From NCBI GenBank assembly GCA_028711705.1, contig JAQTRS010000005.1, positions 1 to 62,397 of the forward strand: a DNA stretch of 62,397 nucleotides, in the 5' to 3' direction. Positions 1 through 59,754 of the stretch are shown here, piece after piece; within the stretch, counting starts at the first letter, position 1, and the number at the start of each line of letters is the position of its first letter. Below the pieces are notes generated by a model. The model was not told the origin of the DNA. It made no database searches and worked only from the letters and a program-made list of their open reading frames with translations. Position numbers and translations under genes: made by a program. This DNA comes from Candidatus Moraniibacteriota bacterium. Lineage in GTDB: Bacteria > Patescibacteriota > Minisyncoccia > Moranbacterales > UBA1568.

Positions 1-238
1 AATCTCTTATTGATTTCTATTCCTCCTGCTACTAAGATGTTTCAATTCGCAGGGTTAGCTTTACCGACCTATGTATTCAGTCGTGTAATTCTTTGCTCGA
101 AGCAAAGAGGGTTATCCCATTCGGACACCCCCGGATCAAAGCTTGTTTGGCAGCTCCCCGAGGCTTTTCGCAGCCTACTACGTCCTTCATCGCTCGCTTC
201 AGTCAAGGCATCCACCATATACGTTAGTAACATTTTCT
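1..238 (-). rRNA. rrl: 23S rRNA, 5' end only (gene runs off the left edge)
   Basis: The reverse complement reads ...GTATATGGTGGATGCCTTGACTGAAGCGAGCGATGAAGGACGTAGTAGGCTGCGAAAAGCC...GGTGTCCGAATGGGATAACCC...GCGAATTGAAACATCTTAGTAGCAGGAGGAA. These are the conserved blocks of bacterial 23S domain I. The 5' boundary is approximate. Confidence 0.9.
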
Positions 239-28481: not shown

Positions 28482-29546
28482 CTAATTCATCGGCGCGATT
28501 TCCTTCCACTTATTAGAGGTACAGTTTTTCGAGCCGAGGCATGTCGGAGCGGATGCAGCATCGCATCCGGCCGGCTTGGTGGAGGTGAACGTCGAACCGG
28601 CACACACGGCCGCGGCATCGGAAAGGGCGGCGGCGCAGGTGCAGACCGGAGCGGCGGCTGCGACCGTCACGGTAGCTGTGACCGTATCCGCACCATAGGT
28701 CGCCGTTATCGTCGCGGTCCTATTATTTGTATCACCATCCGCGATAGCTGATACGATAGTGGTTGGCGTCCCGCCTGTCGAGCTCAGCGATATGAATGAG
28801 GCACTCTCGCTCCATGTGATGGCAGACACTGGATTAGCCACACCCGGATCAGAGCAATTGGCTCGCATATCATAGTACAGCCCGAGCGTCTGGGAAGAAC
28901 CCTGCAGGATCGTCGGATTCGTATCGGGACAGATCTTCAAGATATTGACAGGGACAGGCGCAACGGCTTGCGCGCGGGAAAAATCGATCCAACCGAGTTC
29001 GTCGGACCAGGCATAGGTCGGGTTCGCTCCCGTTCCGTCCATCTTCGTGATATCCACGCCATACGGGACTGCCGATCCCGATGAAGCGCTATTGAGACTG
29101 ATGCAGCCCTTCCACCCACCAGCATTGGCACCGGCATCGCGAATGCCAAGGATTCTTGCGGCTCCCATAACAACATTACCGGATCGCGTCGGTGCCCCGA
29201 AAAAACAATCGAGTACATCAGCCTCATTGAAACCGATCCAACCGTAGTTCTCGCTCCATGCATAACCGCTCAATTTGCACCCGGCACCTGAACACGAGCT
29301 ATCCGGTATATTGACCCCGTACGAAACGGCTCCATTAACAATATTTCCGAGCGCATCCGTATTGTTCATACTCACCCAACCCAGGGATGTTTCATTACCA
29401 TTGATCACGCCATCCGAAGGATTCTCACTTCCGCCCCACAGCCACCCCCGAACACTCTCACCTGTGCCGGCATATGTTTTAACTGCCCCTCCGAACGCGA
29501 TAGCCAATGCTACCACCGGGAGTGTCCACATGATTTTGTTTCGCAT
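28482..29546 (-). CDS. secreted protein with three W..GW(I/V)xF repeats, an Ig-like segment and a Cys-rich C-terminus
   Basis: It has a signal peptide (MRNKIMWTLPVVALAIAFGGAVKTYA). The repeats read SLGWVSMNN, YAWSENYGWIGFNE and YAWSDELGWIDFS. An ATITATYGADTVTATVTV segment follows, and the last 60 aa contain 6 Cys. Confidence 0.6.
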   Translation of the reverse strand: MRNKIMWTLPVVALAIAFGGAVKTYAGTGESVRGWLWGGSENPSDGVINGNETSLGWVSMNNTDALGNIVNGAVSYGVNIPDSSCSGAGCKLSGYAWSENYGWIGFNEADVLDCFFGAPTRSGNVVMGAARILGIRDAGANAGGWKGCISLNSASSGSAVPYGVDITKMDGTGANPTYAWSDELGWIDFSRAQAVAPVPVNILKICPDTNPTILQGSSQTLGLYYDMRANCSDPGVANPVSAITWSESASFISLSSTGGTPTTIVSAIADGDTNNRTATITATYGADTVTATVTVAAAAPVCTCAAALSDAAAVCAGSTFTSTKPAGCDAASAPTCLGSKNCTSNKWKEIAPMN

Positions 29547-29659
29547 ACTTTTATATTTAACATGCCCCCATTCGATACATACACTCTACCATACTTTTTT
29601 ATATCCGCCTATCCTATCAACACCCGACTCGCAACCATTTCAGTATACGGCAAAACATC

Positions 29660-30538
29660 TCATATCTCCGAGTGAAAAACTTTTTCAACGGATCGCTTTA
29701 TGGCGCTTGTAAGCGACGCCTGAGAACAATCCTTTATTTCCATAATTTTTTTGGCCACCGCTGTCACGAAGCTCGGTTCATTGCGCTTCCCGCGATGCGG
29801 AACGGGTGCAAGAAATGGGCAATCGGTTTCTATAAACATCCTTTCGAGCGGAATCAGATTCACAGTTTCTCGGATATCGTCTTTCGTTCCTTCTGCAGAT
29901 TTTTTAACAGCATAAGTAATATTGCCCGTAAATGAAAAGTAAGCATTTGGAAATTCAAGGAATTTGCGCGTCACTTCCGTATCACCCATATAGCAATGAA
30001 GGATGAAGTTCGTATCGCCGCCCTCTCGTCGTATCACTTCTACAAGATCCTCATAAGCATCGCGGCAATGGATGATCATCGGCAGGTGCAGCTCCTGTGC
30101 CAGCCGTATCTGCGCGATGAACCCTTCTTTCTGCCACGCTTTCTGTGCATCCGTTATCGTATCACCCGTATGGCTGAAATAGTCCAAACCGCATTCGCCT
30201 ATCGCGATTATTTTCGGATTGTTTTTTGCCAATTTCCTCAATTCTTCAACATCTTCCCTAAGTTGATTCTCATCAACTGTTACTTGTCGGTTATCATCGA
30301 TTATTGGATTTTGGTTATCGGTAATTGCAACTTGTTTGCAAAAATAGTGCGGGTGCAACCCGACAGACGAAAAAATCCGCACATCCATTTCCGTGACAGC
30401 AAGCGCCTGCTTATGTTCCTCGGGCGACGTACTTACTACGACCATCATCGAAAGCCCGACATCAAAAGCACGCTTGATGACCTCCTTCCGATCATCGTCG
30501 TACTGCGGCATATACAGATGGGTATGAATATCAAGCAT
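29660..30538 (-). CDS. tatD: TatD-family metal-dependent hydrolase
   Basis: MLDIHTHL, GECGLDY and IIHCRDA motifs. A roughly 25-aa insertion (ITDNQNPIIDDNRQVTVDENQL) is present. Confidence 0.9.
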   Translation of the reverse strand: MLDIHTHLYMPQYDDDRKEVIKRAFDVGLSMMVVVSTSPEEHKQALAVTEMDVRIFSSVGLHPHYFCKQVAITDNQNPIIDDNRQVTVDENQLREDVEELRKLAKNNPKIIAIGECGLDYFSHTGDTITDAQKAWQKEGFIAQIRLAQELHLPMIIHCRDAYEDLVEVIRREGGDTNFILHCYMGDTEVTRKFLEFPNAYFSFTGNITYAVKKSAEGTKDDIRETVNLIPLERMFIETDCPFLAPVPHRGKRNEPSFVTAVAKKIMEIKDCSQASLTSAIKRSVEKVFHSEI

Positions 30539-30542
30539 AAAG

Positions 30543-31534
30543 TTATTGTATCATACCCGCAACCTTATCCCTTAACTTCGCTGTATTCCCCCACTTCAAA
30601 AGTCCCAGATACGATTGAACGACTCCTTCTTTATTGCCATTCTCCTCAAGATTGCGAAACATCCTTCGCTTGGTCGCCGTCCGTAAAACCCGATGATGTG
30701 GAAAATGCACCCAACCCAAAAAATCCACTCCCGAAGCCAGTGTTTCAATGGATACTTTATTCGGATGCATTTGCAGTTTCAATTCCCAGAGCAAGAACCC
30801 TTTCATCTGAAGTAAGATATCCTCAAGGTACGTTTTGTCTCGTGAAAATACAACAAAGTCATCCGCATAACGAATATACTGTCTCACTTTGAGCTCGTGT
30901 TCACGAATCGGTCGAATGCGTTCATATAGATATTGACCAGCAGTTGTGAAGTCAAATTTCCCAACGGCAGCCCGACGCCTGCGTGTGTTGAATGAAAGCT
31001 TCCGATAATTTCACTCAGCAACCACAAAATATCTTAATCGACAATGTGCTGTTTCAAAATTTTCACAAGAATTTCATGATCAATAGACGCGAAGAATTTC
31101 TTAATATCGCATTTGAGAACAAAGCAAGTTTTTGTATTGTTACAACTTACTTGGCGTGCAAACTCTTGAAACCGACTATTGGATTTATGTGTCCCTCTCT
31201 CATTTCGGCACGAATACGAATCGGCGATAAACTTCTTATCGAAAAACGGATACAAAACACGATATAAAGCGTGATGCACAATCCTGTCACACACCGAAGC
31301 CTTGTGAATGTCTCTGGGTTTGGGATCGGAGATTTTGAAAGCATGATACCCGCCGTGCCGATAGGTTTTGTTTTTCAATTCATCATGCAATGCAAGAATA
31401 TTGTCGGATAAACAATACTGAAACATCTGCACATCTGTCTTGTTGCGCTTGCCTTTCACAAAAGCTCGCCAAGCGACGAGCAAATTTTCCAAAGAAATGG
31501 TATCATCATAGATATGGACCAATTGTTTTCTCAT
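30543..31534 (-). pseudogene. DGR-type reverse transcriptase, interrupted by an in-frame TAA (31034-31036) and a -1 frameshift near 30900
   Basis: The three frame pieces read MRKQLVHIYDDTISLENLLVAWRAF...DPKPRDIHKASVCDRIVHHAL...FASIDHEILVKILKQHIVD*, then DILWLLSEIIGSFH...GLPLGNLTSQLLVNIYMNAFDRFV, then (shift) HELKVRQYIRYADDFVVFSRD. LGNLTSQ and YADD are DGR RT hallmarks. Confidence 0.85.
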
Positions 31535-31541
31535 ACTCCCA

Positions 31542-31937
31542 ATGTTACCCCCCCCCCCGACATTCTTGCAACCGAAACTCATTCCGGTCGTTTTGAAACT
31601 GAAAGACGCGTATGGCGTATGGCAAAATCATCTCCCTCATTTTCCCAAAGCGAATCGTTTCACGATCGGATCAAAAATCGACAACGTATTCCTTGCGACA
31701 ATCGAGTACTGTTTTCTGGCAAGTTACGCCAATGTTTCAGAGAAAATACCTCTTCTGGACAGAGCCATTTCACGAGTGGATCTGATTAAACTTTTGCTTC
31801 AATTGACTTGGGAAATGCATGCGCTCGATAACGCGAAGTATATGCAATTAAGCGAACGATTGGCAGAAATCGGACGGATGCTGGGCGGTTGGAAAAAAGG
31901 CCTCCAAGCAAAACAAAAACTCCCATCGGAAAGATAG
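31542..31937 (+). CDS. avd: Avd-like accessory variability determinant (four-helix-bundle family)
   Basis: 131-aa ORF containing HLPHFPKANRFTIGSKID. Its C-terminus RLAEIGRMLGGWKKGLQAK resembles the Bordetella phage Avd C-terminus. It lies on the strand opposite to the RT, TR and target. Confidence 0.75.
   Translation: MLPPPPTFLQPKLIPVVLKLKDAYGVWQNHLPHFPKANRFTIGSKIDNVFLATIEYCFLASYANVSEKIPLLDRAISRVDLIKLLLQLTWEMHALDNAKYMQLSERLAEIGRMLGGWKKGLQAKQKLPSER
31548..31558. repeat. C11 (G11) homopolymer tract in codons 3-6 of avd
   Basis: The sequence ATG TTA CCC CCC CCC CCG shows 11 consecutive C directly. Confidence 0.95.
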
Positions 31938-31954
31938 GAGAAAAAACACGGTTT

Positions 31955-32064
31955 CACGAGAACATTCGGTTATCCGCATTCCACCGGTCATTCTCGCCAA
32001 ACTTCCAGTCATTGACGTTCCACTTACCGTTGTCGGCATTCCAGTTTACGTTGACAACCGCGAC
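31955..32064 (-). repeat. DGR template repeat (TR)
   Basis: It is 110 nt colinear with 32382-32491. At all 16 mismatches this copy carries A on the minus strand. In the VR frame it reads as an Asn-rich peptide, VAVVNVNWNADNGKWNVNDWKFGENDRWNADNRMFS. Confidence 0.9.
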
Positions 32065-32368
32065 TCTCGTATGAGGTATCATCCATGCCACCACCCGTCG
32101 AATACTCTTCGGGTTGAATCGTATGCGGGATATCGAAGTCCTCCAACACCTCATACCAACGGTGTATTTTTTGTTTGAAAGAATTGGAAACCACTCTCGG
32201 CAGAGCCTTAACCCTCCCAATTCCCGATTTTCCATTCTTGAAATTCTTGTTCTCAGCCGTAACCGAAAACTTTTCAGAATTCCATAGTGAGTATATCAAA
32301 AAAAGCGGGCCCCTCATACCAAAGGTACAAAGAGCCCAAGAGCCTAAGTAAAAACAAGATTCCAAGTG

Positions 32369-32989
32369 TCACACCGGTTGGCACGAGAACACTCGGTAAG
32401 CCGCATCCCACCGGCCAAGCTCGCCAAACTTCCAGTCATTGACGAACCACCGACCGCTGTCGGCATTCCAGTAGACGCGGACAACCGCGACATACCCCAG
32501 TATTTTCAGATGAAATATATTTGCACGGTAATCGGTGTTGAGAAGTGAACCATCTTTACCGCCCCACTGTTTCAGCAGAAGCCATAGAATGAGAGTGAGA
32601 CCTTCGATAAGCCCGAACTCGTATCCTTTCGGCAATTCTCGATCGATTTCGCTGTCGGACATCCTTTCTTTGAGATCAAAATAGTATGCCGTTATTGGTT
32701 CAATCGTCTCGACAATTCCCTGAACGTATTTGAGAATATTTGCTCTGAAAGTTTCCCAAACATACAAACCTTCCTTTGTTTGAAAAAACTCAAGAAAGTT
32801 GAGGTTCGTTTGTGGATCGGTTGTTACTGAATTCACATATCTCAGTTTATCCGACTGCCATTTTAAGGCAGGTTCATTTTTTTCGCCAGCTTCTCTGCTG
32901 GCGTTTATAGCATTCTGCAAAATTTCCGAAGAAATTTTGCCACAAATGCACAGCCAGGTGAAATACGCCCATTGTTTTATTTTATTCAT
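32369..32989 (-). CDS. DGR target protein (hypothetical, VR in the last ~40 codons)
   Basis: The start is set at ATG 32989 (MNKIKQW...) with a GGAGAG Shine-Dalgarno sequence 6 nt upstream. An upstream ATG at 33037 is also open. I see no obvious signal peptide. Confidence 0.75.
   Translation of the reverse strand: MNKIKQWAYFTWLCICGKISSEILQNAINASREAGEKNEPALKWQSDKLRYVNSVTTDPQTNLNFLEFFQTKEGLYVWETFRANILKYVQGIVETIEPITAYYFDLKERMSDSEIDRELPKGYEFGLIEGLTLILWLLLKQWGGKDGSLLNTDYRANIFHLKILGYVAVVRVYWNADSGRWFVNDWKFGELGRWDAAYRVFSCQPV
32382..32491 (-). repeat. DGR variable repeat (VR) at the 3' end of the target gene
   Basis: It encodes VAVVRVYWNADSGRWFVNDWKFGELGRWDAAYRVFS. The 16 substitutions relative to TR all fall at TR adenines. 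Confidence 0.9.
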
Positions 32990-33098
32990 AATGACTCTCC
33001 TCTGCGTTTGAGTCGTTGGGAAAATGGCGGTTGCCATGATTTTTAAGGATATAAAATCCTTTATTAGTCTTATTTGATTGTTAAGAAACTAACAGTGC

Positions 33099-33127
33099 AT
33101 TGTACACCTCTTTGTGGGATTTGTCAA
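33099..33127 (-). promoter_or_regulatory. candidate promoter of the DGR target gene
   Basis: The minus strand reads TTGACA, a 17-nt spacer, then TACAAT. Confidence 0.55.
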
Positions 33128-33210
33128 TACAAATTCTCAAAATACGCTTCATTGAGCCATTTTATTTTCTAATACTGCATTGATCGCTTATAATGATCAA
33201 TCGCATAAAA

Positions 33211-34626
33211 TTAGGGTAAACGCCCAAACAAGATTTCTCCCTTGCGATTTGTAAGCATTGCCTGCATCTTCTCTACTGTTGTAGGCATAAACGGAGGCAA
33301 GAGCTGCGCGATCAAAGCCAAGTCCTCGAGCAATTTCTTCATCACCGCTTCAAATTTTTCCGTATCGGTTTTCGCAAGTTCCCACGGCTTATTTTCCTCG
33401 ATAAATTTGTTGGCATTCCGAACGATAGCCCAAATGTATTCCAACCCCTCACTCAACTTATATTTCTCAAGTAATTTCACAAATTCCTCCGGTAGGTCTT
33501 TGCTCGTTGTTAATTGTTGACTGTTAAGTGTCTTCTCTGCCAGTTTCAAAACACGCGATACCAGATTGCCCAAACCATTCGCAAGATCGGCATTGTATTT
33601 CTCTGTCAGGCGCTCCCAGGTCACATCCGTATCATCTCCGATCGGCGCACCGGAAAGTAGAAGATACCGCGTCCCATCGATGCCGAATTTTTCCACCAAT
33701 TCCTCGGGCGCGATCACATTGCCCAAGCTCTTGCTCATTTTCTGACCACCGACATTGATGAATCCATTGATAAGTATCTGTTTGGAAGGCGAAAGTCCTG
33801 CCGAAAAAAGCATCGCCTGCCACATAGCGGATTGCTGGCGCAAATTATCCTTGCCGCAAATCTGCACACCCGGCCAAAACGCCTCAAAATTCTCCGTATC
33901 CTCCGACCAACCTAAAGTTGAGATGTAATTGACGAGTGCATCAAACCACACATACATCACGTGCTCGTCATCACCCGGCACCGGCACGCCCCACGGCATC
34001 TTCGCCTTGAGTCGTGATATGCTGAAATCCGAAAGTCCCCGCTCCACAAAAGCTACGATCTCGTTCATCCTTTTTTTTGGCACCACAAAATCCGGTCGCT
34101 CTTTATAGAGTTTCAAAAGCGTTTCTTGATACTTTGAAAAATGGAAAAAATAATTCTCCTCCTCGATGATCTGTAGTTCTGTGTTCGGATGAATAGGACA
34201 TTTCCCGTCCACTAAATCAGAATCGGTCTTTTCCAATTCGCACCCCACGCAATACCTGACGCTGTATTGTTTCTTGTAAATATCGCCATTTGCTTCGCAA
34301 CGCTTCCAAAACTCCTGCGCCGCCGACTCGTGATGCGTATCGGTCGTGCGGATAAAGTGCGTATAGCTGATATTCAACTGCTTCCATGGCTCCATGAAAT
34401 GCTCCACCATCTCATCACAATATTCTTGCGGTGTTTTCCCAAGCTCCAAAGCCTTCTCATAAATCTTGGTGCCATGCTCATCCACCCCGGTATTGAAAAC
34501 GACCTCATCACCCAAAGAGCGATGGAAGCGTGCAATGGCATCCGCTTCGAGAATTTCCAAGCCAAAGCCGATATGAGGCTTGGCATTCACATACGGCAGC
34601 GTGGTGGTGATATAGAATCTTGACAT
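33211..34626 (-). CDS. metG: methionine--tRNA ligase (short form)
   Basis: It begins FYITTTLPYVNAKPHIGF, carries KMSKSLGN and has a CxxC...C Zn knuckle. Confidence 0.95.
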   Translation of the reverse strand: MSRFYITTTLPYVNAKPHIGFGLEILEADAIARFHRSLGDEVVFNTGVDEHGTKIYEKALELGKTPQEYCDEMVEHFMEPWKQLNISYTHFIRTTDTHHESAAQEFWKRCEANGDIYKKQYSVRYCVGCELEKTDSDLVDGKCPIHPNTELQIIEEENYFFHFSKYQETLLKLYKERPDFVVPKKRMNEIVAFVERGLSDFSISRLKAKMPWGVPVPGDDEHVMYVWFDALVNYISTLGWSEDTENFEAFWPGVQICGKDNLRQQSAMWQAMLFSAGLSPSKQILINGFINVGGQKMSKSLGNVIAPEELVEKFGIDGTRYLLLSGAPIGDDTDVTWERLTEKYNADLANGLGNLVSRVLKLAEKTLNSQQLTTSKDLPEEFVKLLEKYKLSEGLEYIWAIVRNANKFIEENKPWELAKTDTEKFEAVMKKLLEDLALIAQLLPPFMPTTVEKMQAMLTNRKGEILFGRLP

Positions 34627-34649
34627 AGGGGAGAATTAAGTATATATAG

Positions 34650-34679
34650 AGTATAGCCTTAAACAAGGCAATTTTGCAA
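34650..34679 (-). promoter_or_regulatory. candidate metG promoter
   Basis: The minus strand reads TTGCAA, an 18-nt spacer, then TATACT. It lies about 25 nt upstream of the ATG. Confidence 0.4.
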
Positions 34680-34696
34680 ACAAATAGGAGAATGCG

Positions 34697-34933
34697 ATGA
34701 AACCTTCATCAATCGAAAGAAAAGAAAGGGGATTTACACAATTATCCCGTGAAAGTAGTGCAGCATTGTTTGTGCTCGTTCTGGTTTTAGTGTTTGGCAT
34801 TAAACCTGCTGTATATTTTAAACTTATTTCCGAACCAAAAAATTGGAAAGCTGAGTACTCATACAGGCAATTTGGACTGCAAATGCAGCAGCAATCAAAT
34901 AAGTATAACGACATCAAACCAATACCCAGGTAA
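34697..34933 (+). CDS. small membrane protein (hypothetical)
   Basis: An AGGAG Shine-Dalgarno sequence lies 6 nt upstream of the ATG. The ORF has one TM helix (AALFVLVLVLVFGI). An overlapping antisense ORF (34636-35025) is an alternative reading. Confidence 0.35.
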   Translation: MKPSSIERKERGFTQLSRESSAALFVLVLVLVFGIKPAVYFKLISEPKNWKAEYSYRQFGLQMQQQSNKYNDIKPIPR

Positions 34934-35228
34934 CCGTAAGCTAAGGAGGCTATCATACCAAATAACAAACCGCCCATAAGCACTGCCGAGATTTTTATGG
35001 CCATCATCCTGATTCTTGGAAGCATGGCTTTAGCACTGCTCTAAACCAATCATGTATCCGCAAGCAGGGCTCTGGAAAATTCCATCCCTGTTTTTAATTT
35101 TAAAAATCACCTATTTTTTCGCCTATTTTCTTGTCAAAAAAGCAATTTTTCCGGAACGATGCGAGTACGCATATGTTCCTTGAAAAATTCTTTTTCATAA
35201 GAAAATAATCACTACTAGTGCCGCTTGA

Positions 35229-59293: not shown

Positions 59294-59687
59294 GGGGTTG
59301 TTTAGACTCGACAGGGTGTACTTTTACAATACGCAAGCCGATTATGAAAGTATTATCGTTAATCATCCTTTCACGATGACAATTGCAAACGTCTTCACAA
59401 AAGCCAAGCAGGCATTAGCGCAAGCTTTTGCTCCTACTTACGCTTTCAACCTGGCTTAAATTCCAGGTTCATCAAGCTCTTGACTCCCGATACGGAGATC
59501 TTGGTGTCATACATCGGGAAGGATCGATCCTTGTAGCCGCTTTTCGGATCGAAGCCCTTGCACAAGACGGCTAGACTCGAAAGACTTGGTTTGTTTTGTA
59601 CTTTCGAGCCTTACATAAAGCAAACTAAGCTTGTAGAGTATTATAGGAGTACATTACTGGACATGGGTGCAATTCCCATCAGCTCCA
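59294..59687 (+). ncRNA. ssrA: tmRNA (one-piece)
   Basis: The 5' end GGGGTTGTTTAGACTCGACAGGG and the 3' end GGACATGGGTGCAATTCCCATCAGCTCCA form a tRNA-Ala-like acceptor with G3:U. The tag ORF at 59385-59459 begins with GCA and reads ANVFTKAKQALAQAFAPTYAFNLA*. Confidence 0.9.
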
Positions 59688-59754
59688 CATCATTTTTAAG
59701 TCCAATCATATTAGAAGGAGAAAATTCCGCCGAGCGCGGCCAAAAGTTGAGGTT

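Follow-up and report, generated by a model that had tools for sequence, protein, structure and literature searches.

A 110-nt repeat pair in a Moranbacteria-like CPR bacterium, accompanied by an accessory gene and by reverse transcriptase (RT) motifs, raises the question of whether the locus is a working diversity-generating retroelement (DGR) or one that has lost its enzyme. The window analyzed is the whole stretch of 62,397 nt, within which the cassette spans approximately 30543-33127, at a site between metG and tatD. It comprises a putative promoter, a target gene with a C-terminal variable repeat (VR), a structured RNA carrying the template repeat (TR), Avd and RT; the target gene with its VR comes first, then about 320 nt of spacer, TR, avd in the opposite orientation and finally RT (Table 1). 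The element is a genuine, chromosomal DGR of a type common in CPR bacteria (Patescibacteria). We put at roughly three in four the probability that it is a frozen DGR, with an intact target, intact avd and intact TR RNA elements but, unless the sequence contains errors, a dead RT. The site at the upstream edge of the cassette probably functions as a promoter, to judge from its match to the consensus, and homology to two related cassettes (L001 and L014) begins at 33127-33131.

Table 1. Features of the cassette, listed in the direction of target transcription, in coordinates of the window
Feature	Coordinates	Strand	Remarks
Promoter-like TTGACA-17-TACAAT	33099..33127	-	11/12 consensus positions; at upstream edge of cassette, ahead of target gene
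Target (variable protein) gene, 206 aa	32369..32989	-	ORF intact
Variable repeat (VR)	32382..32491	-	target residues ~166-202; 16 A-to-N differences from TR, none elsewhere
CTT[G/T/A]G pentamer array, 8-nt spacing, running into hairpin	32306..32366	-	directly 3' of VR and stop codon
Extended -10-like box TGATATACT	32290..32298	-	directly past putative target terminator; TATACT in 7/8 aligned loci
Structured 5' leader of TR RNA	32069..32271	-	helices 32271-32249, 32239-32179 and 32156-32069, with inner hairpins
Long-range duplex, 5' strand	32158..32170	-	pairs with 31941-31953, brackets TR
Template repeat (TR)	31955..32064	-	30 A; 9 AAY codons
Long-range duplex, 3' strand (AACCGTGTTTTTT)	31941..31953	-	immediately 3' of TR
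Stem-loop CTCCTATC/GATGGGAG, then U-run	31910..31940	-	15 nt past TR; terminator-like
avd (accessory variability determinant), 131 aa from ATG 31542	31542..31937	+	Pfam/NCBIfam models
C11 homopolymer (G11 on RT strand)	31548..31558		between avd and RT start codons
RT pseudogene, 330 codons if repaired	30543..31534	-	three ORF pieces; LGNLTSQ and YADD present

The single direct-repeat family found in the window was the TR/VR pair, ungapped, with an offset of 427 nt and 85% identity, and the colinear arrangement without indels described in the original prediction was thus borne out by the repeat search. On the minus strand the TR contains exactly 30 A residues, where about 30 had been estimated. 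All 16 mismatches fall on these, VR having C, G or T in their place, and an exact TR/VR alignment showed no difference at any of the 80 non-A sites, both as originally claimed. The hypergeometric probability of 16 of 16 mismatches falling on 30 of 110 positions is 2.1e-11. Nearly all the template adenines (28/30) lie at codon positions 1 or 2; the VR and TR peptides quoted earlier were right, and nine AAY codons were counted, in keeping with the earlier statement that such codons sit at the diversified sites. The theoretical diversity of the TR is 2e16 peptides. The target ORF reads through VR and ends four codons past the repeat, in agreement with the claim that VR encodes the last codons of this ORF. 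The 16 A-to-N changes, with nothing else altered, are the rewriting expected of a DGR, and with VR at the 3' end of the target gene the earlier inference that the cassette rewrote the C-terminus of this protein is sound. In a check for IMH/IMH* sequences, the final 10 nt of the repeat (TGTTCTCGTG) were the same in TR and VR, with divergence beyond. A search of the window for a second VR, using the TR masked at its A positions as query, both at full length and in 50-nt pieces, found none.

Beyond the coding repeats, the cassette carries a series of conserved RNA and DNA elements. Directly past VR lies the CTTNG array, which all seven related loci share, with pentamers about 10 times as frequent as in the background; nowhere in the window are they denser. 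It runs into a terminator-like 15-bp hairpin followed by a T-run (32338-32306), 44 nt past VR. From their position, array and hairpin may be a terminator, a homing target element, or both; the array, with its 8-nt period, could be a mark of the homing target. The -10-like box TGATATACT is a candidate promoter of the TR RNA. An RNAalifold analysis of seven loci gave 50 pairs with compensatory changes in this RNA. Pairing was retained in 89.6% of cells, as opposed to 39-49% when the partners were slid, and none of 500 shuffles reached the observed values; these figures are somewhat favored by the derivation of the structure from the same alignment used to score it. The long-range duplex that brackets TR has 12 pairs, of which 6 are changed on both sides. 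The stem-loop beyond TR (8 pairs) is kept in all seven loci with a covarying stem, and it shares bases with the 3' end of avd, which is encoded on the other strand. Pairing of upstream with downstream sequence around TR, the 'cPRT Stop duplex', was reported for 207 of 278 DGRs, and an Avd-binding stem-loop just downstream of TR was also described (bioRxiv 10.1101/2023.10.23.563531); the duplex and the stem-loop found here resemble these two elements. Scanning the window and the TR region against Rfam yielded chance-level matches alone and nothing relevant.

The Avd-like ORF that had been noted beside the repeats was substantiated by its match to Pfam PF22296 bAvd, which at 48.5 bits was above the cut-off of 40; the match to NCBIfam NF033474 DivGenRetAVD (E 1.4e-17) scored 63.8 bits, under the cut-off of 80. 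The strand of avd opposes that of RT, TR and target, a point that the original prediction had not remarked on. Divergent avd and RT genes were also seen in L005, L006, L007, L010, L011, L012, L020 and L021, and the orientation is normal for the CPR clade; a local inversion was ruled out, as every relative has the same arrangement. No long homopolymer occurs in the window besides the C11 tract, which is read as PPPP when avd is taken to start at 31542. Poly-C/G tracts of 8-12 nt were present in 10 of 10 related loci. Situated at the beginning of avd and immediately ahead of the RT start, such a tract could be a slippage switch that turns the mutagenesis machinery on and off. Phase variation was looked for and not seen at the consensus level: six assemblies of one Giovannonibacteria population all had G10. 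In the papers searched, no link between DGRs and a regulatory homopolymer tract was found.

The RT gene is where the locus departs from expectation. The original prediction had listed an RT carrying LPLGNLTSQ and YADD next to the repeats, which gives the picture of an intact, textbook cassette. Both motifs are present, but they do not belong to a single intact gene: because of an in-frame stop and a 1-nt deletion they lie in different frames, in a coding region split into three ORF pieces (31034-31582, 30884-31027 and 30543-30887). The stop is a TAA at 31034-31036, produced by a G-to-T substitution; homologues have Glu, Gln, Ser or Lys at this site, with GAA, CAG or TCG codons at the nucleotide level. 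The deletion lies between 30900 and 30899, in GTGAA[A/G]CA[C/T], a short A-run, and it hits a Lys codon that is invariant in nine aligned homologues; without the 1-nt loss the reading at 30899-30900 would be GTGAAACAC. All RT homologues examined were uninterrupted (320-380 aa), and the picture of an intact cassette therefore does not stand. In its sequenced form the element is unable to make its own RT. Apart from the two lesion codons, the RT deviates at 3 positions, all conservatively, among 134 columns invariant in nine homologues, which is the level of intact homologues.

The lineage of the RT is that of DGRs, as had been supposed. When repaired, the protein aligned with the brt of Bordetella phage BPP-1 at 32.7% identity, with 97% of the query covered (E 4e-44), and its other phage matches include annotated or known DGR phages. 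In the PDB the best match was 8ub7_A (E 2.5e-44), with group II and retron-type RTs at 1e-16. The protein is 60-80% identical to thousands of intact Patescibacteria (CPR) RTs and has the motif-4 signature [ILV]GxxxSQ in the form LGNLTSQ. A group II intron was rejected, since TIGR04416 gave 143 bits against a cut-off of 300 and the Rfam scan of the window contained no group II intron. A retron was likewise rejected, with 60 bits against a cut-off of 235 for the retron RT model and no retron RNA in the Rfam scans.

Related loci give a view of what becomes of this cassette. A-biased TR/VR pairs with the same gene order were present in six of them (L005, L007, L010, L011, L012 and L014). Another, L001, is an older fossil of the same cassette, in which a deletion at an 8-nt microhomology (ATGCGGAT) removed the 3' end of TR, avd and two-thirds of RT; mismatches between the TR remnant and the VR of this locus occur at 9 of 67 non-A sites. 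The target protein of L001 is identical in three samples. In the closest host relatives metG adjoins tatD and the cassette is absent. A metagenome scan for further close copies returned only the L002 contig, which was already known. Decay runs in the lineage of the cassette, as L001 shows. If the lesions described here are real, the locus is at a very early stage of DGR decay, and inactivation of the RT would be recent, because there is no non-A drift between TR and VR and no excess of RT substitutions at conserved sites; the other possibility is that the lesions are assembly errors. Two RT lesions without further decay could also stem from errors in assembly or sequencing, or from a minority haplotype.

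A reading in which the DGR is fully active, with the stop and frameshift present as assembly or sequencing artefacts or in a minority haplotype, is the main alternative to be weighed. It would account for the perfect agreement of TR and VR at non-A sites, for an RT whose conserved positions are kept as well as those of intact homologues, for a frameshift that is a 1-nt loss in an A-run, and for a target, an avd gene and TR RNA elements that are all intact. Against it, two independent lesions occur within 990 nt, the other genes of the window are long ORFs without interruption, a G-to-T substitution is not a homopolymer error, and decay has been demonstrated in related copies of the cassette. 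On balance we regard a fully active element as unlikely. Much less probable still is an arrangement in which the RT is dead and its TR, Avd and VR are served in trans by the RT of another DGR in the genome. Continued use of this kind could be reflected in the conserved avd and RNA elements and in the non-A identity of the repeats, and co-transcription is not a requirement for the components of a DGR (Wu et al. 2018, PMC5758913); on the other hand, no second RT was found within the 62-kb window, CPR genomes are small, and the contacts between RT and RNA in the Bordetella system are intimate and specific (bioRxiv 10.1101/2023.10.23.563531).

Two further explanations can be set aside. Expression of the RT by programmed recoding, with read-through of the stop and a ribosomal frameshift as a regulatory device, has no specific support and would require two different events. 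TAA is the commonest genuine stop in the window, where it ends 19 of 29 long frames; the nine aligned homologues and further RT genes compared at the nucleotide level are uninterrupted, with sense codons at both sites, and none of the relatives compared shares the interruptions. Rescue of the RT by recoding, or by an alternative genetic code, was therefore ruled out, and we hold it to be very improbable indeed. An ordinary partial gene duplication, with differences that happened to fall on adenines, has nothing to recommend it beyond the existence of the repeat, and it is effectively eliminated by the adenine-only mismatches (chance probability 2e-11), by the placement of the adenines in AAY codons, at the first two codon positions, by the adjoining Avd and DGR-type RT, and by the same pattern in six related loci. 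We retain the reading of a genuine CPR DGR with a probably broken RT.

While active, the cassette would have worked in the manner suggested by the Bordetella phage paradigm and by its own RNA elements. A structured RNA of about 390 nt would be transcribed from the TATACT box just past the target terminator, and in it the TR would be held between the long-range duplex and the 3' stem-loop. RT and Avd would then copy the TR into cDNA with random bases opposite adenines, and the cDNA would take the place of VR; up to 19 codons of the 206-aa target, in its three final beta-strands, could be changed in this way. The activity of the cassette and the start and ends of the TR RNA are in this scheme predictions from the analysis of the locus.

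DGRs of CPR bacteria (Patescibacteria) were reportedly treated by Paul et al. in 2017. The gene order seen here, with the target and its VR followed by the spacer, TR, opposed avd and RT, was the same in all related loci examined. A 'CPR set' of DGRs with a 'B3' architecture was defined by Wu et al. 2018, together with unknown VR classes UVR1-6 (PMC5758913); B3 is the nearest label for the present architecture, and the match to this gene order is putative. Targets in the 'DGR clade 2' of Roux et al. 2021 are small and lack TM segments or known domains (PMC8144416), and the same is true of the target here. Where this cassette differs from CPR DGRs is in its RT, broken by a stop and a frameshift. 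In the survey of Wu et al. 2018, more than half of the candidates were left out because they had premature stops, were truncated or had a TR and VR that matched poorly (PMC5758913). The RT described here has a premature stop and a frameshift in the same way, and L001 is likewise truncated with a drifting TR remnant; unlike the surveyed degenerate elements, however, the present cassette has TR and VR that agree perfectly outside the template adenines, and its remaining parts are all intact. Comparison with the prototype BPP-1 DGR (mtd-avd-TR-brt) shows adenine-specific TR-to-VR differences, a C-terminal VR, Avd and the [ILV]GxxxSQ motif of the RT in both, and the TR-flanking duplex and 3' stem-loop are like those in the bRT-Avd-RNA structure (bioRxiv 10.1101/2023.10.23.563531). 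In contrast, the BPP-1 element is phage-borne and this one chromosomal, avd is here on the opposite strand between TR and RT, and the conserved RNA structure lies mostly 5' of TR instead of in a long 3' spacer. No clear GC-rich 14-mer and no obvious GC-rich IMH were found; what is conserved instead is the CTTNG array.

As a DGR, the element adds little to those published from CPR bacteria; the literature already covers their architecture, the RNA elements, non-membrane targets that resist annotation, and how often copies are dead. The locus is of value because it probably captures DGR decay at its very beginning, when the RT has been hit and TR and VR are still perfect, with older fossils and empty sites in relatives, and this should help in judging which catalogued DGRs are really active. 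What is new or unexplained is the VR domain without a fold match in the PDB, the poly-C/G tract and the CTTNG array past VR. The tract and the array could bear on DGR regulation and target finding. The joint proposition that the VR domain of about 120 residues is a new DGR scaffold, distinct from the C-type lectin and Ig folds, and that the cassette carries two undescribed CPR cis elements, is offered tentatively and appears doubtful as a whole.

A word-indexed search with the target identified only 5 relatives (42-72% identity over the full alignment). A profile search extended these to 1,194 cluster representatives, all of which are about 160-230 aa long and carry the domain at the C-terminus, so that the family comprises at least 1,194 clusters at 50% identity. 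Among 70 family members there was no credible Pfam match, the one marginal hit being to GTP_EFTU_D3 in a single member (E 0.0046), and nothing convincing was found for the target in NCBIfam or in a PDB sequence search. The target has no TM segment and appears to be non-membrane; its family mostly lacks signal or TM segments. An N-terminal lipobox or signal peptide was considered and rejected, as the Cys is not conserved and hydrophobicity is modest.

AF2 models of the full-length target and of the domain alone had pLDDT values of 91.6 and 93.5. In the model, VR forms two long beta-strands, a loop and the final strand. The domain, of about 118 residues without inserts, has the predicted element order beta-alpha-alpha-beta-beta-beta-(beta)-beta, which fits the order of the CLec core; a CLec fold consists of a beta1/beta5 pair, two helices and a four-stranded sheet. 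When both models were compared with PDB and BFVD by Foldseek, no match was obtained at E <= 0.001; the best match was HigB2 (TM 0.33), and lectin-fold structures were not among the 50 best-ranked matches listed in each PDB search. Mtd-type C-type lectin structures are thus matched by the target neither in sequence nor by Foldseek. The nanoarchaeal variable protein AvpA has a C-type-lectin fold that was not predictable from sequence, and its CLec core has the secondary-structure order predicted here (PMC5006420). Both are small variable proteins of nanosized organisms with a domain undetectable by sequence; in contrast to AvpA, the target domain is without inserts and without a PDB match at the above threshold. 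A domain that is modelled confidently and yet has no PDB fold match may, insofar as the model is correct, be new, and so large a CPR target family with an unmatched predicted structure can be used to test whether VR domains are, as assumed, C-type lectin variants without exception. The target sequence itself was found by sequence search on JAQTRS010000005.1 alone. An alternative upstream ATG at 33037 would extend the target to 222 aa.

A repeat search of 29000-35000 returned a single long direct repeat, comprising the template repeat (TR) and the variable repeat (VR) of a diversity-generating retroelement (DGR), each 110 nt long, spaced by 427 nt and 85% identical without gaps. There are 16 mismatches between the copies, and in minus-strand reading every one sets an A in the TR against C, G or T in the VR. 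The TR contains exactly 30 A residues, and none of its 80 non-A positions differs from the VR. The original prediction of colinear repeats with this offset, no indels, 16 mismatches and about 30 adenines was right in every figure, and exact alignment confirmed that the mismatches are adenine-only. The probability that all 16 would fall on 30 of 110 positions by chance is 2.1e-11, and A-biased TR/VR pairs also occur in six related loci, so that chance duplication is effectively ruled out. The target ORF is intact and encodes 206 aa, with four codons between the repeat end and the stop. In its frame, 28 of the 30 TR adenines occupy first or second codon positions, nine TR codons are AAY, and TR and VR differ in 12 codons, 11 of which alter the amino acid. 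The theoretical peptide repertoire of the TR is about 2e16. No further VR-like copy was found elsewhere in the window.

Coordinates of the DGR cassette features and of corresponding features in related loci (L numbers)
Feature	Position	Strand	Remarks
Target ORF	32369-32989	-	variable protein
VR	32382-32491	-
TR	31955-32064	-
Pentamer array, window	32320-32366	-	adjoins VR 3' side
Terminator-like hairpin of target	32338-32306	-
TATACT box	32298-32290	-	TGATATACT; conserved; directly after the target's terminator-like hairpin
5' helices of TR RNA	32271-32069	-	three or four helices, 5' of TR
Long-range duplex	32170-32158 with 31953-31941	-	encloses TR
Stem-loop, then U-run	31940-31920	-	RNA structure alignment, seven loci
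avd	31542-31937	+	Pfam bAvd 48.5 bits, cut-off 40
Homopolymer tract (C11), window	31548-31558		between avd and RT start codons
RT	31034-31582, 30884-31027, 30543-30887	-	three ORFs, not one gene
Homopolymer tract, related loci	L005 1062-1071; L006 387-394; L007 2983-2993; L010 7251-7260; L011 1595-1602; L012 5934-5941; L020 2473-2482; L021 1793-1801; L014 near its end
Pentamer array, related loci	100 nt past VR		L005, L007, L010, L011, L012, L014
TR/VR mismatches at template A			L005 16/16; L007 15/16; L010 20/21; L011 17/18; L012 19/20; L014 20/22
Cassette-free metG-tatD sites	L016 7416-7576; L018 7428-7579		compared with window 30539-33210

The ORF beside the repeats that had been described as Avd-like scores above the cut-off of the Pfam bAvd model. 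It also matches the NCBIfam model 'diversity-generating retroelement protein Avd' (E 1.4e-17), at 63.8 bits, which is under that model's cut-off of 80. Its strand is opposite to that of the target, TR and reverse transcriptase (RT). An avd gene is likewise divergent and just upstream of the RT gene in L005, L006 and L007, which hold the intact RTs most closely related to this one, and in genome loci L010, L011, L012, L020 and L021, so this is the clade's normal arrangement and no anomaly. In L005, L007, L010, L011, L012 and L014 the target carries a C-terminal VR, followed by the TR 430-470 nt downstream. A single architecture subtype ('B3') made up 90% of the CPR set of Wu et al. 2018, who also found that DGR components on different strands do occur (PMC5758913).

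The RT with LPLGNLTSQ and YADD motifs had been predicted as well, and it is of the DGR type, but it is not one gene. All-frame translation places an in-frame TAA at 31034-31036, after ...KQHIVD, and a frame change between ...FDRFV and HELKVRQYIRYADD, where a base is missing between 30900 and 30899. The pieces were joined with one unknown residue per lesion, and this repaired RT was aligned to nine close homologues. These have Glu, Gln, Ser or Lys at the TAA site, and the frame change is the loss of one base from a Lys codon that is invariant among them. At the nucleotide level the window has GAT TAA GAT where L005 and L007 have GAT GAA GAC, and GTGAA-CAC where relatives have GTGAA[A/G]CA[C/T]. 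Of the 29 longest frames in the window, 19 end in TAA, and TGA and TAG also serve as stops, so the genetic code is standard and the TAA within the RT is a true stop codon. Programmed recoding is effectively ruled out, since homologues have sense codons at both sites and TAA is the main stop. Long ORFs free of interruptions cover the remainder of the window. The terminal TAA of the RT (30543-30545) is only 4 nt from the ATG of tatD (30538-30536), and the cassette abuts this downstream housekeeping gene with neither spacer nor terminator.

Thousands of full-length homologues were found for the repaired RT; the best 120 listed are 321-380 aa long and at most 80% identical to it, and the named ones are almost all from Patescibacteria. 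Among solved structures the repaired RT is closest to PDB 8ub7_A (E 2.5e-44, residues 6-318), a chain of 328 aa named 'Reverse transcriptase'. Its matches in a phage collection include brt from Bordetella phage BPP-1 (32.7% identity, 97% coverage, E 4e-44); the identical length and score suggest that 8ub7 is this same protein, bRT. Further matches are to other phages that carry DGRs, such as ANMV-1 and crAss-like phages. Group II intron and retron-type RTs in the PDB comparison gave 1e-16 or worse, and the corresponding NCBIfam models scored 143 bits (cut-off 300) and 60 bits (cut-off 235). The RT thus does not cluster with group II introns or retrons, and an assignment to either type was rejected. 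Its motif LGNLTSQ fits [ILV]GxxxSQ, and by its sequence relationships it is classed as a DGR RT. The assignment of the cassette as a DGR was correct, and the element belongs to a known, well-surveyed DGR clade.

We consider it about 75-80% probable that a CPR-type DGR rewrote the VR of the window recently and has just lost its RT. If the RT were long dead, TR/VR drift at all positions and loss of conserved RT residues would be expected, and neither is seen. Of 134 columns invariant in the nine homologues, the RT, its two lesion codons aside, deviates at only three, each a conservative change; intact homologues under equal treatment show 2-12 departures. The lack of other decay in the cassette is equally what would be seen if the element were active and both lesions were errors or a minority haplotype, the main rival explanation, which we think improbable. 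Inactivated copies are in any case ordinary, since more than half of the candidate DGRs of Wu et al. 2018 were discarded for stops and truncations (PMC5758913). That the TR, Avd and VR are served in trans by another RT seems very improbable, as judged from 62 kb of the genome. The element is probably, then, a freshly inactivated copy, and its interest rests on a decay series among its relatives, on an unassigned target fold and on two conserved cis elements.

More advanced decay is found in the related locus L001, whose target protein is 72% and cassette DNA 82% identical to those of the window. A 1.1-kb deletion has removed from L001 the stretch matching window 31971-30869, with the TR end, avd and two-thirds of the RT. 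Its junction falls within ATGCGGAT, an 8-nt microhomology of which the window has one copy in the TR and another over the codons for YADD. What is left (L001 6838-7344, also in L002 and L003) is a cassette fossil in which the TR is fused to the RT between ...RWNAD and DFVVFSRDK. A further stop interrupts the RT remnant, and of 67 non-A sites in the TR remnant 9 do not match the VR; the L001 target protein is identical across three independent samples. L014 has a cassette at the window's site, downstream of metG, with MetRS 84% and Avd 91% identical to the window's. Its repeats (1744-1860 and 2181-2296) show one mismatch at a non-A site and an extra nucleotide in the VR compared with the TR, by which the final codons of the target are shifted; the contig stops short of the RT. 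The two host relatives with the most similar MetRS (85% and 83% identity) lack the cassette and have tatD as the next gene after metG, some 155 nt away, and in L001 and L004 the target sits in other genomic contexts. The GC content of the cassette is 44%, against about 50% around it. The empty sites, other contexts, lower GC and decayed copies together indicate that the cassette is a movable island, gained, lost and decaying within the group. No transposase or integrase gene or flanking repeats were seen for the cassette.

The stretch that begins at the target terminator and ends shortly beyond the TR was aligned for seven loci, giving a consensus structure of 84 pairs, 50 with compensatory changes. 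In an explicit count of 77 pairs, which excluded one pair with mostly gaps and two short helices inside the TR, 89.6% of cells were paired versus 71% in column shuffles (0 of 500 as high) and 39-49% with partners slid by 1-3 columns; sliding reduced the 50 covarying pairs to 18-21. These statistics favour the structure, since it was predicted from the same alignment, but the margin is nonetheless large. Such TR-flanking RNA elements were reported in 207 of 278 DGRs, CPR included (Handa et al., bioRxiv 10.1101/2023.10.23.563531). The TATACT box is likely the promoter of the TR RNA. All the TR RNA elements are intact in the window.

The C11 tract is the sole long homopolymer in the 62-kb window. 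Each of the 10 related loci examined has such a tract at the equivalent place, 8-12 nt long (poly-C; poly-G on the RT strand) and 15-50 nt ahead of the start of the RT. Conserved Avd sequence starts directly past it; an upstream start codon is in frame through the tract, as PPP(P), in six of nine assessable loci, and three have none. The tract looks like a slippage on/off switch; alternatively, it may be an expression element. No length variation was seen in six assemblies of one population, all G10, and the literature searched yielded no published description of the tract. Each of the seven loci has three to seven pentamers of the CTT[G/T/A]G type (CTTGG, CTTTG, CTTAG or CTTGA), often spaced by exactly 8 nt, directly 3' of the VR. 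The array, about ten times background and with no denser such spot in the window, forms part of the terminator hairpin and may be a homing-target element.

A word-indexed search with the target found only five relatives (42-72% identity across the full alignment), which vary over their final 40 residues in the manner of a VR. With a profile, 1,194 cluster representatives were found (E <= 0.001), nearly all 160-230 aa long and with the homologous domain C-terminal. Pfam gave no credible match for 70 family members (the sole one, GTP_EFTU_D3 in one member, was marginal at E 0.0046), and the profile matched no PDB sequence. Only 5 of the 70 have a strongly hydrophobic N-terminal stretch, in agreement with the description of CPR clade-2 targets as without recognisable TM or other domains (Roux et al. 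2021; PMC8144416). AlphaFold2 with the family alignment gave pLDDT 91.6 for the full target and 93.5 for residues 89-206, with the VR modelled as two long strands (166-175 and 180-187), a loop and a final strand (199-203). Foldseek searches of PDB and BFVD with full-length and domain models found nothing at E <= 0.001; the best match was HigB2 toxin (TM 0.33), and no lectin-fold structure was among the 50 matches listed per search. The predicted order of elements, beta-alpha-alpha-beta-beta-beta-(beta)-beta, is that of the C-type-lectin (CLec) core described for the nanoarchaeal variable protein AvpA (PMC5006420), and uncharacterised CPR VR domains are expected to be new CLec variants (Roux et al.; PMC8144416). 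The modelled fold may be a pared-down variant of the CLec fold or, alternatively, a new scaffold.

Distant family members (26-36% identity; L008 6001-6558 and L013 619-1020) are present in Kaiserbacteria and other CPR genomes. Neither RT nor avd was found within about 6 kb of them, so the family also occurs where no DGR adjoins it, or where one has been completely lost. One protein of the profile search, P0128 (926 aa), has five matched stretches of the domain, which is usually single in a protein of about 200 aa. Elsewhere, the window carries five tRNA genes, a complete tmRNA gene (59294-59690, tag AKQALAQAFAPTYAFNLA) and a 23S rRNA gene (1-238, minus strand) that is cut off by the left contig end after its first 236 nt.
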